A stretch of DNA of 64,000 bases from the sequence record ON528731; one strand, given 5' to 3'. Of the stretch, positions 7,014 to 44,685 are shown one piece after another. Position 1 is the first letter of the stretch. Each line of letters begins with the position of its first letter. The stretch is from Shigella phage ESh21. The notes under the pieces are model-generated. The model saw only the letters and a list, made by a program, of their open reading frames with translations. It searched no databases and was not told the DNA's origin. A program made the position numbers and the translations under genes.

Positions 7014-8083
7014 TTAATTCACATCCAATCTTCTTAGGTGAAGAACGTAAGACTTTTGATTCACTTAATAAATACTATCCAAAAATCTTTGAACTGTATA
7101 AGCAGCAGAAAGCTCAAGACTGGTCTGAAGAGGAATTTCCATTTGAGCAATCACGCTTAGACTTTGAGAGTGTCCCTCAGTCAATGTCTGGGGTTATGCT
7201 TGAAATTCTTAAATGGCAATGGGAAGCAGATACCCAAGTTGCCAAGAGTTTAGCATTCGCTTTTGCACCGTTTATCTCTGATGACATTTATGCAACTGCA
7301 ATCATGAAGCAATCTGAAATTGAGAACCTTCATGCTTTAACTTATTCTGAGATTGTTCGTCAGTGTATCAAGAATCCTGAAACAATCCTTGATGAGATTA
7401 ACAATAACGTTGCTGTTCAAGACCGTCTGAAGACAGTGAACAGAACTTTACAAGAACTACTTGACGAAGGTATCAACTATCGTTTAAGTTACGTTCGTCA
7501 GGAACTGACAGATAAAGACCCTTTACATTTCCATAAGGCAATCTTAAAGGCTCTCTTTGCAGTGACTGCTTTGGAAGGCATTTCCTTCATGGCATCTTTT
7601 GCATGTACTTTTGCACTGGATGCACAAGATAAGTTCCAAGGTATTGCACAAGCTGTTCAAAAGATTATGCTTGATGAAATTATTCACACCAAAATTGATA
7701 TCGAAGTGTTGAAAGAAACTCTGAAGGATGAGAACTGGCAGGAAGCATTCAGACAGATTATGCCAGAGATTAAAGTTATTCTGGACGAAGTTGTTGAATG
7801 TGAAGAGAAGTGGTCTTACTATATCTTCTCTGAAGGTCGAGCAGTTGTAGGTTTAAACACAAAACTTCTTCACGAATGGGTTTACTATAATGCTGCACCG
7901 CTGTATGATATGTTTGGAATCCCAAGAGATTTCGTAGCTCCTAAAGAAGCTCCACTTGCTTACATGATTAAGAAGATGGAAATCGACAAAGAGCAAAATG
8001 CTAACCAAGAACAGCAAAATGGTGCTTACTTGCTTAACACAGTTGTAGATGATTTATCTTCAGGATTTTTAGAGGTTCCTTAA
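7010..8083 (+). CDS. nrdB: ribonucleotide reductase class Ia small subunit
   Basis: 357 aa; ferritin-like di-iron radical subunit pattern; ATGA overlap with upstream gene. Confidence 0.85.
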   Translation: MINSHPIFLGEERKTFDSLNKYYPKIFELYKQQKAQDWSEEEFPFEQSRLDFESVPQSMSGVMLEILKWQWEADTQVAKSLAFAFAPFISDDIYATAIMKQSEIENLHALTYSEIVRQCIKNPETILDEINNNVAVQDRLKTVNRTLQELLDEGINYRLSYVRQELTDKDPLHFHKAILKALFAVTALEGISFMASFACTFALDAQDKFQGIAQAVQKIMLDEIIHTKIDIEVLKETLKDENWQEAFRQIMPEIKVILDEVVECEEKWSYYIFSEGRAVVGLNTKLLHEWVYYNAAPLYDMFGIPRDFVAPKEAPLAYMIKKMEIDKEQNANQEQQNGAYLLNTVVDDLSSGFLEVP

Positions 8084-12214: not shown

Positions 12215-12468
12215 TGTCGTACTGTAACATGTCACTATTTGGTAGCTACAAAGTAAATCCAGAAACCCTTGAAGAGTGGAAAGTCTATACTAAAAGTCTG
12301 TTTGATTCCACTGGTATGGAAGCATTGAAATGTATTGAGGATGCTGGAGTATTTAAAGTAAAATACAAAGCACATTTCTCAAATTTTTACGCGACAAACT
12401 TATGTGTTGATGATAAAGTTGTCGCAGTTACTGAAGAAGAACTTAATAAGTTCTGTATTAAACTTTAA
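12215..12468 (+). CDS. hypothetical protein
   Basis: ORF 12067..12468 overlaps nrdG; internal ATG 12215 after GGTGAG chosen as start (uncertain). Confidence 0.35.
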
Positions 12469-12483
12469 ATGAGAGAGATTAAA

Positions 12484-12741
12484 ATGGGAATTTTTAGTAA
12501 CATGAAAGCTGGTTTCTTAGCGGCACTGGCAAAAGCAGCAGCAATTGTTTCTATGACGGGTAAGCAGGTCGGTGTAGATGCTTCAGCAGTTGCACAGGTT
12601 CTTGCAAGCCAGATTGAACAGCAGCCTTACATTCACGTTGGACGTGGTAAAGGTGGTAAGAGACAAGCTCACCGTCCATCTGGTGCAGCAGCAATTAAAC
12701 GTGCAGCTAAAAAAGCTCGCAACCGTAAACGTAGCAAATAA
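12484..12741 (+). CDS. small protein with basic Lys/Arg-rich C-terminus
   Basis: ATG 12484 after GAGAGAG; C-terminus KRAAKKARNRKRSK. Confidence 0.4.
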   Translation: MGIFSNMKAGFLAALAKAAAIVSMTGKQVGVDASAVAQVLASQIEQQPYIHVGRGKGGKRQAHRPSGAAAIKRAAKKARNRKRSK

Positions 12742-12753
12742 GGGATAGCCAAC

Positions 12754-13065
12754 ATGGAAAAGCTTTATAACACTCGTAAGATTCAGATTGCAGTTCTGTG
12801 CCAATTTATGGTTGAGAAATATAATGCACATTATTGTGGCACAGGTTTTCTAGCTTTTGGTGGTGAATATATCCCGTTTAAGAAAGCTGTAAAGATGTAC
12901 AATGAGTCACTAGCTAGTGACAAAGAGGTAAAACAACTTAAGCTGACTTATGACAAGAAAGCTAAGAAGATTGTATGTCTGAACCATTCAATCAAACCTA
13001 CAGATTACGTTACAAGCAACATCGGTGAAGAAGGTTTCTTCAAAGTGTTGAAAGTCGCACAGTAA
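12754..13065 (+). CDS. hypothetical protein
   Basis: 103-aa ORF. Confidence 0.45.
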   Translation: MEKLYNTRKIQIAVLCQFMVEKYNAHYCGTGFLAFGGEYIPFKKAVKMYNESLASDKEVKQLKLTYDKKAKKIVCLNHSIKPTDYVTSNIGEEGFFKVLKVAQ

Positions 13066-13078
13066 AAGTATATGATTA

Positions 13079-13107
13079 GGGAACTGTAAAAGGTTCCCTT
13101 TTTATTT
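13079..13107 (+). terminator. rho-independent terminator
   Basis: GGGAAC-loop-GTTCCC + TTTTTATTTT. Confidence 0.65.
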
Positions 13108-13117
13108 TGGAGAAATC

Positions 13118-13633
13118 ATGTACTACTCAAACCTTAAACGTGCTGCTGCAATGTCTGTTTTACGTCTTGATTTTGATGAACGTCAAGAGTTCATTGAGTC
13201 TCACCAATATGACCCTTCAAACTCTAATCACATGGTTCTTTGGAATCGTGGGAAGTACCGTGATAGTTCCCTCTTTGCATATTACCCTCACTACACTATT
13301 GACAACCTCTATGAGTACTGTGTTGTAAAGAACACTATAGCTACCCTTAATAAGCTTTGTAGATATTCTGGAAAGAAAGCTTTCACGTTAGGCCACCATA
13401 AGCCCGTGACAAAAGGTGGAGAGCACCATTGCTCGAACTGGTTTATCCAGACTAAAGAAGATAACCAGAAGCAAGGAGAGAAGCTTCCAGAAGCTCCTAA
13501 GATGACTTGGGAAGAACAGGAAGCATATCTTATAAATAATATGCCACCAATGCTTGACAGGGAATATGCAGTTCTGGCAATATCTCTCTTGTTGAAGTTC
13601 GAGACTGTTTATGAGGCGACTTATAATGGCTAG
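13118..13633 (+). CDS. hypothetical protein with HNH-like (His-Me finger) motif
   Basis: GHHKPVTKGGEHHCSNWFIQTKEDN resembles HNH HH..P..GG...N core. Confidence 0.4.
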   Translation: MYYSNLKRAAAMSVLRLDFDERQEFIESHQYDPSNSNHMVLWNRGKYRDSSLFAYYPHYTIDNLYEYCVVKNTIATLNKLCRYSGKKAFTLGHHKPVTKGGEHHCSNWFIQTKEDNQKQGEKLPEAPKMTWEEQEAYLINNMPPMLDREYAVLAISLLLKFETVYEATYNG

Positions 13634-20852: not shown

Positions 20853-20880
20853 AGGGCTGCTTCGGCAGCCTTTTTTATTT
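20853..20880 (+). terminator. rho-independent terminator
   Basis: GGGCTGC-TTCG-GCAGCC + TTTTTTATTT. Confidence 0.7.
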
Positions 20881-20906
20881 GAAAAATGTGCAGGATGGTG
20901 TATAAT
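20879..20906 (+). promoter_or_regulatory. sigma70-type promoter
   Basis: TTGAAA - 16 nt - TATAAT upstream of 20914 gene. Confidence 0.5.
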
Positions 20907-20913
20907 TGTCTGC

Positions 20914-21486
20914 ATGTTTAACAAAATAGGAGACCCAATGAAGAAATTCATTTTAGGTTTGTGCTTATTATTAACAGCACATGTTGCTACAGCGTCAGAT
21001 TGTCCAGAACTAACAATTAGCCAGAAAGTTAACATGTTAAAGGCTTACAATTATGGCGAGAAAGAGATGGGACAAGGTTGGGGAATCCCATTAGCAGCTA
21101 TAGCCTTACAAGAGTCACAATTAGGTGTCAAGGTTGTTAATAAAAAGACTCACGATTATGGAGTGTTCCAGAATCATTTGAAGACTGTTGTAAAGCGTAA
21201 CAAGATTTCACCTAACGTTGCAAAGAGAAAGCTTATCAGTGATTTCCATTACTCAGCTAAAGAGGCTCACAAGGAACTTCTTTTCTGGACAAATGTACAT
21301 GGTCACCCAAATGGAAAGTATTCTATGAAGCGTGTCTTAGCATCTTATAATGCTGGTTACAAATATAAGATTCCAAAGGCTAGACAATACTCTCAAGACG
21401 TGTACAATAACATGCAACTGCTTGCTCAATGTGAGTTTGCAACAAACATTAAAAAGGTAAAATATGAGCGAATCAAAACAATTTGA
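20914..21486 (+). CDS. secreted protein with lytic transglycosylase (SLT)-like motif
   Basis: N-terminal signal peptide MKKFILGLCLLLTAHVATA; ALQESQLG...DYGVFQN resembles the SLT catalytic E-S ... GLMQ region. Confidence 0.4.
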   Translation: MFNKIGDPMKKFILGLCLLLTAHVATASDCPELTISQKVNMLKAYNYGEKEMGQGWGIPLAAIALQESQLGVKVVNKKTHDYGVFQNHLKTVVKRNKISPNVAKRKLISDFHYSAKEAHKELLFWTNVHGHPNGKYSMKRVLASYNAGYKYKIPKARQYSQDVYNNMQLLAQCEFATNIKKVKYERIKTI

Positions 21487-24370: not shown

Positions 24371-25165
24371 ATGGGCATTGTAAAAATCATTAAAGGTGAT
24401 ATCTTTGAAGCCTTTGATAACCAGAAGTTTGATATCATTGGTCACGGATGCAACTGCATGAACTTGATGGGTGCAGGTATTGCAGCAACAATCTCAAAAC
24501 GCTACCCAAAAGCTTATGAGACTGACGCTGAAGTTTATGAGACAGTTGGTGGTGAGAACCATAAACCTGTACATCTTATGCTTGGCAATATCTCTGTAGC
24601 ACGTTTCAAGCAGGGTCGAATTGCTAACCTATACACTCAGGTTATCACTGGTAAAGATGCACGTTACAATGCCTTAGAAGCAGCTTTGCAGCGTCTTAAC
24701 AACTACTGCAAAGTAAACCAGCTTAAGAAGGTTGGTCTTCCAATGATTTGTGCAGGGATTGGTGGTCTGGATATCTTTGCAGTTACTTCAATCATTAACC
24801 AGACAATGAAAGATGTAGACGTTTACCTTTATGTCTATGAAGAAACAATGCACAGACGACTAACCAATAACATAGTTGGTTGGAACAACTACAGTGAACC
24901 TCAACACTTTGATGGTGTCGCAGTTGTGAAGGATAATCAAGTTACACTACGGGTAAAACGGAAGGGTAAGGTGCATAAAAGTAACCCTCCGGTTGAGAAG
25001 TACTCTCTGAGTAACGCTCAAGTTACCCACCCGTTACATGACCACTGTTTGAGAGCAGTAACATTTGGTGACAATGCAAGTGTTTACCTTCTTGCACAAG
25101 ACCATGAAGAAGCTGATAAGATTATCTCTGATAAACGTTTTAGCTTTGTTGAAGCACGTAACTAA
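24371..25165 (+). CDS. macro domain protein (ADP-ribose binding/hydrolase-like)
   Basis: IKGDIFE...DIIGHGCNCMNLMGAGIAATISKRYP and GLPMICAGIGGLD follow the macro-domain GD(I/V)T, N-x6-GGGV, G-x-P-x-I-S-x-G pattern (compared from memory with E. coli YmdB). Confidence 0.55.
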   Translation: MGIVKIIKGDIFEAFDNQKFDIIGHGCNCMNLMGAGIAATISKRYPKAYETDAEVYETVGGENHKPVHLMLGNISVARFKQGRIANLYTQVITGKDARYNALEAALQRLNNYCKVNQLKKVGLPMICAGIGGLDIFAVTSIINQTMKDVDVYLYVYEETMHRRLTNNIVGWNNYSEPQHFDGVAVVKDNQVTLRVKRKGKVHKSNPPVEKYSLSNAQVTHPLHDHCLRAVTFGDNASVYLLAQDHEEADKIISDKRFSFVEARN

Positions 25166-25233
25166 GTAACTTTGTAAAGTATTCACAATAGAGTAAGCCT
25201 TTCTTGTTCTTGCAAACACAAGGTAAGGAGGGC

Positions 25234-25424
25234 TTTTTCATTTCAAAATCGTGCAGATAAAGGTCTATAAAGAAATCTGTAGAGTGAAATCAAAGTCAAC
25301 TCCAAAGGGAAAATTCATTTTCAATTTGTGCAGGTGAACTCCAAAGAGCTTTTTCATTTCAAAATTGTGCAGAGAAAAATCAGGTCGGGCAAGAAAATTC
25401 ATTTTCAATTTGTGCAGGTAGCCA
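25234..25424. repeat. tandem duplicated about 90-bp unit containing TTTTCATTTCAAAAT(C/T)GTGCAGA and AAATTCATTTTCAATTTGTGCAGGT
   Basis: two copies of each sub-repeat at 25234/25350 and 25309/25399, non-coding. Confidence 0.7.
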
Positions 25425-25427
25425 GAT

Positions 25428-25472
25428 ATAGCCAGCCAGCCCCACCACCCCCTCTTACTCCCCTTCCTCCCA
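25428..25472 (-). other. G-rich tract with G-quadruplex potential (C-rich on plus strand)
   Basis: plus strand CCAGCCAGCCCCACCACCCCCTCTTACTCCCCTTCCTCCC; minus strand has four or more G3-5 runs; atypical in AT-rich context. Confidence 0.5.
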
Positions 25473-25671
25473 AAAGTCAAGAGAAAAATTTGTAGCGGAT
25501 TAAAAAATAATTCTTGACTAGTTTTCTGTTTAGTGCTATGTGTACGCGCCCGTTTCATTCACAACATGCCAAAAATATTTTTAAAAATTTGCTTGACTCT
25601 AAAAAACCAGTCTTATAGTATTTGCATCAACGGGAAGCAATCCCAACAATCCTAAACTGGAGATTCAAAAA

Positions 25672-25878
25672 ATGTTATATCAACGGGAATTAATGATTGT
25701 CGATAATAACAAAACTAAAAAACGTCGCTTCTTTATGTTAATCTGTGACGTGTGGCAAAGAATATCTGAAAAGGATTATGACAAGTATGTTGATACATCA
25801 ATCAGGTCGGATTGTTATTTGACAAATCACACAAGACAGTTTACAAGACATACAGCAGTTTACTACTATGACGTTTAA
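25672..25878 (+). CDS. small orphan protein
   Basis: preceded by conserved CCTAAACTGGAGATTCAAAAA RBS module. Confidence 0.45.
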   Translation: MLYQRELMIVDNNKTKKRRFFMLICDVWQRISEKDYDKYVDTSIRSDCYLTNHTRQFTRHTAVYYYDV

Positions 25879-43878: not shown

Positions 43879-43955
43879 CTCTGTTTAGCTCAGCTTGGTA
43901 GAGCGTTCCGTTTGGGGCGGTAAGGCCAGAGGTTCAAGTCCTCTAACAGAGACCA
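43879..43955 (+). tRNA. tRNA-Pro (anticodon TGG)
   Basis: manual cloverleaf: acceptor CTCTGTT/AACAGAG, T-loop TTCAAGT, CCA encoded. Confidence 0.7.
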
Positions 43956-43962
43956 AATTAAT

Positions 43963-44037
43963 GTCGTAGAAGGCAAATGGTTAGCCACCTGACCTTCAAT
44001 CAGTTGCTCGCGGGTTCGAATCCCGTCTACGACTCCA
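43963..44037 (+). tRNA. tRNA, anticodon probably TTC (Glu), tentative
   Basis: acceptor GTCGTAG/CTACGAC, T-arm GCGGG-TTCGAAT-CCCGT, CCA encoded; anticodon loop CCTTCAA has C at position 33. Confidence 0.55.
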
Positions 44038-44122
44038 AATTTGACAGAAGACCAAATACAGCAAACAACTTTTACTTTTCGCGCATAGAAAACATAAAAA
44101 GCTTGGTCTGGTCATTAAGAAT
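44038..44122 (+). repeat. structured inter-tRNA spacer element (family CAGAAGACC...GGTCTGG), copy 1
   Basis: begins right after CCA; conserved ends shared with copies at 44200, 44604, 44685. Confidence 0.6.
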
Positions 44123-44199
44123 CGCGGGTATAGAGAAAGGGCGTCTCACATGTCTCATTAGCATGGCAACGGTTGGTTCGACTCCAACACCCGCCTCCA
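44123..44199 (+). tRNA. tRNA with anticodon CAT (Met or Ile2 or fMet)
   Basis: anticodon arm CATGT-CTCATTA-GCATG, T-loop TTCGACT, CCA encoded; C1-C72 mismatch. Confidence 0.6.
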
Positions 44200-44282
44200 A
44201 ATTTACAGAAGACCGTTTACAGCAATTTAAAAACAATTTTATCGGAAAATTAAAATGAATACGGTCTGGTAATGTTAAACAT
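44200..44282 (+). repeat. structured inter-tRNA spacer element, copy 2
   Basis: AAATTTACAGAAGACCGTTTACAGCAATTTAAA...ACGGTCTGGTAAT. Confidence 0.6.
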
Positions 44283-44359
44283 GGTTAGGAAGCACATAAG
44301 GCATGTGCGGTCGGCTGTTAACCGAATGGCACAGGGTTCGAATCCCTGACTAACCGCCA
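44283..44359 (+). tRNA. tRNA-Asn (anticodon GTT)
   Basis: D-arm GCAC/GTGC, anticodon loop CTGTTAA, T-arm CAGGG-TTCGAAT-CCCTG, CCA encoded. Confidence 0.7.
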
Positions 44360-44369
44360 AAATTTAAAT

Positions 44370-44457
44370 GCGTCGTTATCCCGTAGATGGAAGCGGTGGC
44401 GACTGTAAATCGCTTGTCATTACGACTCGGTAGGTTCGACTCCTTCACGGCGCACCA
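44370..44457 (+). tRNA. tRNA-Tyr (anticodon GTA), long variable arm
   Basis: 88 nt; anticodon arm GGCGA-CTGTAAA-TCGCT; variable stem GTC/GAC; resembles E. coli tRNA-Tyr layout. Confidence 0.6.
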
Positions 44458-44463
44458 AATAAA

Positions 44464-44541
44464 GGTTATGTAGTTTAATCTGGTTAAAATACCTCCCTGT
44501 CACGGAGGAAGATGTGGGTTCGAGTCCCATCGTAACCGCCA
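44464..44541 (+). tRNA. tRNA-Asp (anticodon GTC)
   Basis: anticodon arm CCTCC-CTGTCAC-GGAGG, T-loop TTCGAGT, CCA encoded. Confidence 0.7.
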
Positions 44542-44603
44542 ATTTTGAGAAGGGCTTTTTTAGCCCCTCCCTTAAAGAGTTCTTGTGAGTATTCTTTAAA
44601 GGA

Positions 44604-44685
44604 GCAGAAGACCAAATTCAGCAAGCAACAAAAATATTTCAAGCCAATTAATTTGAAAAATTTAAAACTTGGTCTGGTTCCAACA
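44604..44685 (+). repeat. structured inter-tRNA spacer element, copy 3
   Basis: GCAGAAGACCAAATTCAGCAAGC...CTTGGTCTGGTTCC. Confidence 0.6.

Follow-up and report, generated by a model that had tools for sequence, protein, structure and literature searches.

A conserved array of direct repeat units behind the macro-domain gene of Felix O1-like phages, a candidate boundary and control region

Phage phi29 carries, between its early (A2b/A2c) and late (A3) promoters, an array of A-tract-containing binding sites for protein p4, and the complex formed there switches transcription classes. Iteron-type origins are represented by lambda ori with the O protein and by T4 oriE with RepEB, and the repeats of type III antitoxins (ToxI) are about 36 nt long. 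The locus compared here with such systems is a 506-bp gap between genes (25166-25671) in a stretch of 64,000 nucleotides of Shigella phage ESh21 (record ON528731), the whole of which is called the window. The gap runs from the macro-domain "phosphatase" gene (24371-25165; Pfam Macro, phrog_335), which lies directly before it, to the first member (25672-25878, plus strand) of a small-gene cluster on the plus strand, which lies directly after it, and it contains an array of four same-strand repeat units. As a cis-element the array is real and strongly conserved, and its general kind is a familiar one. The reading preferred here, plausible though tentative, makes the gap a boundary and control module: a protein bound to the array would set the timing or the strength of transcription into the small-gene cluster.

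A repeat search resolved the array into four copies of a motif of about 27 nt, (GCTTTTT/GAAAAWT)CATTTTnnAwwyGTGCAgr, all on the plus strand and with start-to-start spacings of 77, 39 and 45 bp in the window. Unit A1 (25232..25258; GCTTTTTCATTTCAAAATCGTGCAGAT) is followed by B1 (25309..25335; GAAAATTCATTTTCAATTTGTGCAGGT), by A2 (25348..25374; GCTTTTTCATTTCAAAATTGTGCAGAG), which is 25/27 identical to A1, and by B2 (25393..25419; GAAAATTCATTTTCAATTTGTGCAGGT), which is identical to B1 (27/27). Subtypes A and B are identical at 18/27 positions (67%) and are variants of one motif. With no more than 3 mismatches, the motif was found five times in the 64 kb (0.11 expected). Scored with a position weight matrix (PWM) that excluded the window, the array sites of the window reached 28-29 and the next sites about 20; A1 scored 27.9, and the best shuffle 20.3.

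The first-pass annotation of this DNA had described a tandem 90-bp duplication made of two sub-repeats in two copies each. Both sub-repeats were recovered, in both copies, as A1 and A2 and as B1 and B2. The duplication itself was not: Tandem Repeats Finder found no array in 25166-25671, the spacings are irregular, and the supposed halves measure 116 and 81 bp and align at the units only, with 39 gapped columns. The same annotation had pointed to the heptamer GTGCAGG as recurring in the spacer of a promoter at 20879; it does occur there, at 20888, within a weaker copy of the motif at 20875, but the heptamer alone was not enriched in the window (8 found vs. 5 expected). Extra degenerate units near 25276 and 25477, seen by eye on a lattice of about 38.5 bp, were not recovered by half-site PWMs and were rejected.

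The window belongs to a Mooglevirus (Ounavirinae, Felix O1-like), with 99% identity to Shigella phage ESh22 and 75-87% identity to other Moogle-, Susp- and Felixounaviruses. A search with the whole gap returned 292 phage records, all of the Felix O1 group except one labelled Staphylococcus phage SA1. That record (GU169904.1, 147 kb) carries a 79%-identical copy of a Felix O1-type gap at 128689-129190, and is probably a mixed or mislabelled assembly containing Felix O1-like sequence. The gaps of 14 phages were aligned (Felixounavirus, Suspvirus, Mooglevirus, Kolesnikvirus [Erwinia M7, Pistou, SB18] and the unclassified Hafnia phage Zyzzx), and in each of them the gap was 460-520 bp long, gene-free and situated right behind the macro/phosphatase gene.

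Four units stood at the same spot after this gene in all 14 sampled Ounavirinae, finno having three, and the array was kept even in the Erwinia and Hafnia phages, in which the flanking genes are only about 54% identical. Because the same four sites recur across relatives in the subfamily, the array is old and not a recent duplication. The spacing was fixed by lineage, being 73/39/45 in Felixounavirus, 75/41/45 in most Moogleviruses, 37/37/39 in Kolesnikvirus and 55/43/53 in Zyzzx. For the distant Erwinia phages, the array region (window 25314-25416) was the sole part of the gap still detected by blastn. When the complete Felix O1 genome (86 kb) was scanned with a PWM built without it, four sites scored 26-29 and the next best 11.

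A two-unit pattern scan of IMG/VR gave 31 loci, 30 of them in Ounavirinae with one array each and the remaining one a coding repeat in a giant-virus bin. No counterpart of the array was found in 5,426 E. coli genomes. Plasmids gave chance matches only by blastn (E ≥ 0.6), and the one Lactococcus match inspected was a single chance match. The two-unit scan of GTDB genomes (596 Gb) gave 35 scattered matches, none in Enterobacterales. That the array mimics something in a host or plasmid, be it an operator, an iteron or a type III antitoxin, was rejected on the plasmid, E. coli and GTDB scans. Searches of the literature on Ounavirinae and Felixounavirus (origin, non-coding RNA, transcriptome) returned nothing relevant. 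In the Felix O1 genome paper (PMC3185647) a terminator, t13, is listed together with twelve direct repeats of 24 bp or longer, but not this array, and the wV8 paper does not discuss repeats; within the literature that could be searched, the array is apparently undescribed so far.

Selection was expressed as mean pairwise identity among nine Felix-, Moogle- and Susp-type sequences. Identity was 0.91-0.955 in the four repeat units and 0.92 in a block at 25472-25521, 0.86 at codon positions 1+2 of the macro gene and 0.72 at its fourfold-degenerate sites, 0.69 in P2, a promoter described below, and 0.60 in a C-rich tract. As identity in the units exceeds that at codon positions 1+2 of the neighbouring macro gene, the array is under constraint; array and block are both under strong purifying selection, and of all non-coding sequence found around the early region, the most conserved lies in the gap. 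Such conservation is not that of neutral sequence. It is scarcely credible that the repeats are debris of old duplications or, in the other form of that explanation, that they encode a small protein (a 97-aa minus-strand or a 55-aa plus-strand open reading frame, ORF).

The small-protein form has on its side the several pipelines that annotate ORFs in the gap, on either strand. The 97-aa ORF (25265..25558, minus strand) is a hypothetical protein in the ESh22 annotation, and was judged to be a non-gene. Its substitutions per codon position were 0.66/0.93/0.93, with no excess at the third position, and by eye no Shine-Dalgarno sequence preceded its start. The first-pass annotation had taken this ORF as a by-product of the repeats, and the absence of a conserved frame, start or end and of codon periodicity supported it. 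Public records annotate from zero to four ORFs in the gap, differing in strand, start, frame and stop, and the alignment contains frame-shifting indels; a small protein was rejected on these grounds. The "hypothetical proteins" annotated in the gap are very likely artefacts, a point of relevance for the annotation of this phage group.

The profile of the units resembled that of protein sites on DNA. Information content peaked at G(-6), at TCATTTT(0-6) and at GTGCA(13-17), about one helical turn apart, which places the conserved bases on one face of the helix. The 5 bp ahead of TCATTTT were either T5 or A5, in a unit order that differed by lineage (T,A,T,A; T,T,A,T; or A,A,T,T). A swap of A5 for T5 is equivalent as a DNA A-tract and is not equivalent as RNA, which argues that the units are read as DNA; no A5:U5 pairing scheme was consistent across lineages. 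The 3' flank was uniform within each genome and lineage-specific (AGGTA, ATAGR or TTATAA), a pattern that suggests co-evolution with a phage-encoded factor rather than with a conserved host protein. Together the units had the features of an operator or site array, namely a repeated, conserved and asymmetric motif, information content with a period of about 10 bp and promoters nearby, and they are most likely candidate docking sites for a DNA-binding protein beside early promoters.

Several candidates for the reader of the units were tried. Sites for DnaA, CRP, Fur, IHF and PurR and pho boxes, compared by eye and not formally, gave no consistent fit across units and lineages, and no unit showed a consistent -10 or -35 of a sigma-70 promoter on either strand. 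The first downstream gene was rejected as the cognate binder: its PHROG family changes from genus to genus, and Pfam gave it no DNA-binding match. A candidate regulator among the proteins of Felix O1 is ORF85, of the HTH_3 type.

A function of the repeats at the RNA level, as nut-like antitermination sites, as a sponge for an RNA-binding protein or as a ToxI-like decoy of about 36-nt repeats, was considered distinctly improbable. The A5/T5 swap between units is not RNA-equivalent, and neither strand gave a signal of folding: the array had z-scores of -0.56 on one strand and +0.76 on the other, the right half gave +1.30 on the plus strand, and a fourth value was -0.11. The best Rfam matches reached 20 bits, gathering scores being 50-64, and only tRNAs passed the gathering threshold in the window; a structured non-coding RNA was rejected on the z-scores and Rfam. 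The array of the Erwinia phages does form a regular tandem of 37/37/39 nt, near the periods of type III antitoxins, but in the E. coli phages the spacing is irregular and A and B are only 67% alike. The gap is transcribed in Felix O1, where by reverse-transcription PCR (RT-PCR) the gap 'ORF14' was maximal at 25 min and the flanking ORF13 and ORF16 peaked at 5 min, and the downstream cluster has many terminators whose passage is unexplained (PMC3185647); against this, the array sits behind a terminator and has no plus-strand promoter ahead of it. None of the downstream genes scanned had any Pfam match and no toxin or ToxN-like protein was recognised among them, and the absence of similar arrays from E. 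coli genomes, plasmids and GTDB bears against an RNA-level role as well.

Downstream of the array, positions 25436-25471 are C-rich on the plus strand and G-rich on the minus strand (GGGAGGAAGGGGAGTAAGAGGGGGTGGTGGGG as the G-rich oligonucleotide). The first-pass annotation had called this run exceptional and its minus strand prone to form a G-quadruplex (G4), and for the window the description held. By the canonical criterion (G3+N1-7 x4, that is, four runs of at least 3 G with loops of 1-7 nt), the minus-strand motif at 25440-25471 was the only one in the window (0.065 expected), and the complete Felix O1 genome likewise has one canonical motif, in the tract. The tract contains the most C-rich 40-mer of the window (65% C vs. 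42% for the runner-up). What did not hold was a place for the tract at the core of the element, as it is not conserved.

That the tract is the functional core, a non-B DNA switch (G4, H-DNA or i-motif) acting on the promoters, is very improbable. Its singularity in the window and in Felix O1 speaks for it, and so does SUSP2, where the tract, read by eye in the alignment, comes close to a perfect homopyrimidine mirror repeat. G4 structures lie outside what the single-strand DNA fold tool used can model. The tract was, however, the least conserved segment of the gap (identity 0.60) and carries 4-nt indels. The G4 motif was present in 6 of the 13 gaps examined and absent in Bas63, EF202P1, NBEco004, finno, M7, SB18 and Zyzzx, and in the first four of these the tract was swapped for unrelated sequence. 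The low conservation, the replacement in Bas63-type phages and the lack of a G4 in Kolesnikvirus and Zyzzx are the reasons for which the G4 was not taken as the core of the element.

Base composition was kept more widely. The plus strand includes the most C>G-skewed 78-nt stretch of the window, and a C-rich, G-poor plus strand (32-38% C, 1-15% G) lies 3' of the array in Felix, Moogle, Susp and Kolesnik phages and in Zyzzx. This composition, with low predicted structure, looks like a Rho-loading (rut-like) site. Two records break off near here: IMG/VR contig 3300045988_009833, from about 5890, stops within the C-rich tract, where it passes directly into the Nextera adapter CTGTCTCTTATACACATCT, and the GenBank record of KhF1 opens at unit A1. 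The C-rich tract may be a cause of breaks in coverage or assembly.

Upstream, the macro-domain gene is followed by an intrinsic terminator (25195..25243, plus strand), a long hairpin and then CTTTTTCATTT, which overlaps unit A1. The minimum free energy fold contained the hairpin at 25195-25235, followed by CUUUUUCAUUU, so that both a G+C-rich hairpin and a U run, the marks of an intrinsic terminator, were present. The homologous site in Felix O1 is listed as t13 (7947..7994, -21.8 kcal/mol; PMC3185647), the name used here. A simple terminator scan missed t13, which was attributed to interior bulges in the stem of the predicted fold. Hand-pairing of the aligned Felix O1 sequence placed G-U pairs in the stem, and because the stem relies on them t13 should work only as plus-strand RNA; on the minus strand the same pairs become A-C mismatches, so that by hand-pairing t13 would not stop leftward RNA.

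A nearly invariant, A/T-rich block (25472..25521; AAAAGTCAAGAGAAAAATTTGTAGCGGATTAAAAAATAATTCTTGACT) follows the tract. It resembles an UP element and ends in the -35 of a putative promoter, P1, and may be read as an UP-like A/T stretch joined to that -35. P1 (25514..25542, plus strand) has the form TTGACT-N17-TATGTG, and in relatives TTGATT-N17-TAGTCG preceded by TGG. Its -35 is good; its -10 had no T at -7 in any relative (TATGTG, TAGTCG, TATTCG), and P1 may depend on an activator. P2 (25593..25621, plus strand), with the form TTGACT-N17-TAGTAT and an A/T-rich stretch upstream, had 9/12 consensus matches in the sigma-70 scan and hexamers conserved in the alignment, and appears as a strong-looking, ordinary sigma-70 promoter and as the early promoter of the small-gene cluster. 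Two TTGACT promoters had been proposed from the letters alone; both hexamers are present (25514-25519 and 25593-25598), but only P2 passed the scan. The criteria applied to both were a -35/-10 spacing of 16-18 bp and a -10 whose second base is A and whose sixth is T; the -10 of P1 lacks that T.

P2 is followed by a leader (25640..25671, plus strand) with a cassette-type ribosome-binding site, AACAATCCTAAACTGGAGA, before the ATG at 25672. The leader AACAATCCTAAACTGGAGA at 25640-25661 recurs at 26117-26138, preceding successive small genes, and the wV8 record annotates these leader and hairpin-promoter units as DR repeats. The recurring leader and the intervening hairpin-plus-promoter units give the downstream cluster a cassette-like build.

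On the minus strand, CTTGACT (25480..25475), N17 and TAAGAG form a possible leftward promoter, P(L), to judge from its letters. The same layout is found again in Bas63-type phages (TGgTAGCCT) and Erwinia phages (TTGACG-N18-TATACT); in the window phage a poor -10 weakens it, and so does t13, which by hand-pairing would let leftward RNA through. A secondary motif, YTRTAGMG, is present on the plus strand at 25276..25284 (TCTGTAGAG) and again at 25490-25497 (TTGTAGCG). Felix O1 has four copies in its gap (8016, 8028, 8173 and 8241) and a cluster at 12441-13597. In the window the motif (e.g., TCTGTAGAG or CTATAGAG) clusters in the gap and in a non-coding region at 31600-33150, which hints at a second factor common to the gap and to that large region.

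Two weak same-strand copies of the array motif, at 20875 and 20948 and thus 73 bp apart (20875..20967, plus strand), scored 20.4 and 20.7 (shuffle maximum 20.3). They flank the promoter and start of an SLT-like gene (20914..21486): the 20875 copy overlaps the -35 and the spacer of a TTGAAA-N16-TGTATAAT promoter located after the rIIB terminator, and the 20948 copy lies inside signal-peptide codons. The 20875-type copy was conserved in Moogleviruses and scored only 10-11 in Felix O1.

The preferred reading of the gap as a boundary and control module can be set out along the plus strand. Terminator t13 would end the transcript of the macro-domain gene, after which the four same-strand recognition units, of about 27-36 bp, would bind a phage-encoded, sequence-specific protein. 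The C-rich, G-poor tract would load Rho and serve as a back-up terminator or insulator against read-through, its G4 potential being lineage-specific. The invariant A/T-rich block would feed P1, with its good -35 and defective -10, and the canonical sigma-70 early promoter P2 would drive the small-gene cluster. A nucleoprotein complex on the array, just upstream of P1 and P2, could act as an early-to-middle switch or in early shut-off. The idea that the gap is a regulatory region, already in the first-pass annotation, is reasonable, since the gap combines t13 with strongly conserved repeats, a conserved A/T-rich stretch and one or more good early promoters. Position agrees with the module too, with the array between t13 and the promoters and a weaker copy overlapping another promoter. 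The late maximum of 'ORF14' in the Felix O1 RT-PCR, against the early peaks of ORF13 and ORF16, likewise counts in its favour.

Other observations weigh against the module. No binding protein was identified, and binding itself is putative. The strong units are about 95-280 bp upstream of the P1 -35, beyond the usual distance of a simple operator or activator site, and the spacings of 37-45 and 73-77 bp are out of helical phase. The scores of the 20875 and 20948 copies lie close to the chance threshold, and in Felix O1 these copies are weak. P1 departs from the sigma-70 consensus and its activity is only putative, the Felix O1 RT-PCR was not strand-specific, and the rut-like tract is missing in Bas63-type phages, so that an insulator layer would not be universal. 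Finally, a genome-unique array of direct repeats also resembles a replication origin.

As an origin, the gap would offer four iterons to a phage initiator, the A/T-rich promoter block would unwind, and the G/C-skewed tract would stabilise an R-loop primer for a T7-like replisome. This is rather unlikely, with evidence on both sides. The array is genome-unique and subfamily-wide, it comprises at least three direct repeats in the same orientation, as iterons do, and its lineage-specific changes are common to all copies, again as in iterons. Promoters and A/T-rich DNA adjoin it, within the top 1% least stable 40-60-bp windows, but the gap is not a local stability minimum (minima at 32.2-33.0 kb) and there is no GC-skew inflection at 25 kb. 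Felix O1 encodes a primase-helicase of the gp4 type, a PolA-type polymerase and an exonuclease like gp6, and its annotation lists no initiator or Rep-like gene, a statement about the annotation only, the proteome not having been searched exhaustively. The literature searched gives no described origin for Felix O1-like phages. Also to be counted against an origin are the absence of the G-rich non-template tract in several lineages, the lack of helical phasing between units and the PhageMaP scores of Bas63, uniformly non-essential over about 46-66 kb, the gap (64.07-64.57 kb) included.

A better candidate for an origin is an ORF-free region of 1.6 kb at 31.55-33.13 kb. This region (window 31550-33130) lies between convergent gene blocks and corresponds to the 12.3-13.9 kb gap of Felix O1. 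It contains dozens of CTTGTTAG/TGTTAA repeats (TGTTAR) with an 11-bp period, in both orientations, and GGGCTATAKAG repeats, and it combines the least stable duplex DNA of the window (minima at 32.2-33.0 kb) with a change of sign in GC skew. It has the look of a strong candidate for an origin, or else for a large nucleoprotein site of some other kind.

The gap was also considered as a packaging site or terminal repeat and rejected as such. The direct terminal repeat (DTR) of phage UAB_Phi87 has been mapped experimentally (PMC4837284); in the record it is a 542-bp exact end repeat, the first 200 bp or so of which map to window 47255-47456, in the tRNA cluster, and the physical genome ends of the phage group are probably in this tRNA region. 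The cluster (43879-48614) has 25 genes on the plus strand, among them two tRNA-Met, two tRNA-Lys, two tRNA-Gln and three tRNA-Leu.

In a broader formulation, possible although doubtful, the array, present throughout the sampled Ounavirinae and nowhere else, would dock a candidate phage protein governing either the initiation of replication or an early-to-middle switch, and the G4- and H-DNA-prone tract would be a lineage-specific add-on (R-loop or insulator). If this were true, the gap would be an iteron-like origin for a T7-type replisome without its own RNA polymerase, or an early-to-middle switch. The array, with four units in about 190 bp, offers a concrete, mutable handle on regulation or replication in the Felix O1 group. 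Applications of Felix O1-like phages include Salmonella typing, biocontrol and therapy, and Bas63 is being developed into a chassis for engineering. According to the Felix O1 genome paper, the timing of transcription and the passage of many terminators are not understood (PMC3185647).

Compared with described systems, the tract resembles Rho-dependent terminators such as lambda tR1 in offering about 50-80 nt of unstructured, C-rich and G-poor RNA after an intrinsic terminator, with composition kept and sequence not; unlike them, it is missing in Bas63-type phages, and its dependence on Rho is putative. With type III antitoxin arrays (ToxI and phage pseudo-ToxI), the array shares tandem direct repeats of about 36-39 nt in an Enterobacterales phage, but it lacks the promoter-array-terminator-toxin layout, no host counterpart was found, its units are heterogeneous and irregularly spaced, and a single RNA fold could not accommodate the A5/T5 swap. 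The likeness to iteron origins consists of a genome-unique cluster of about four direct repeats beside A/T-rich DNA and promoters, with concerted evolution, whereas the array has no annotated initiator and no skew inflection, and its spacing is 37-77 bp instead of about two helical turns. In the p4 array of phi29 the sites are inverted repeats that overlap promoters, in contrast to the asymmetric direct repeats found upstream here, and to our knowledge no p4-like protein is known in Felix O1-like phages; both arrays place several A-tract sites in an intergenic control region of about 200 bp.

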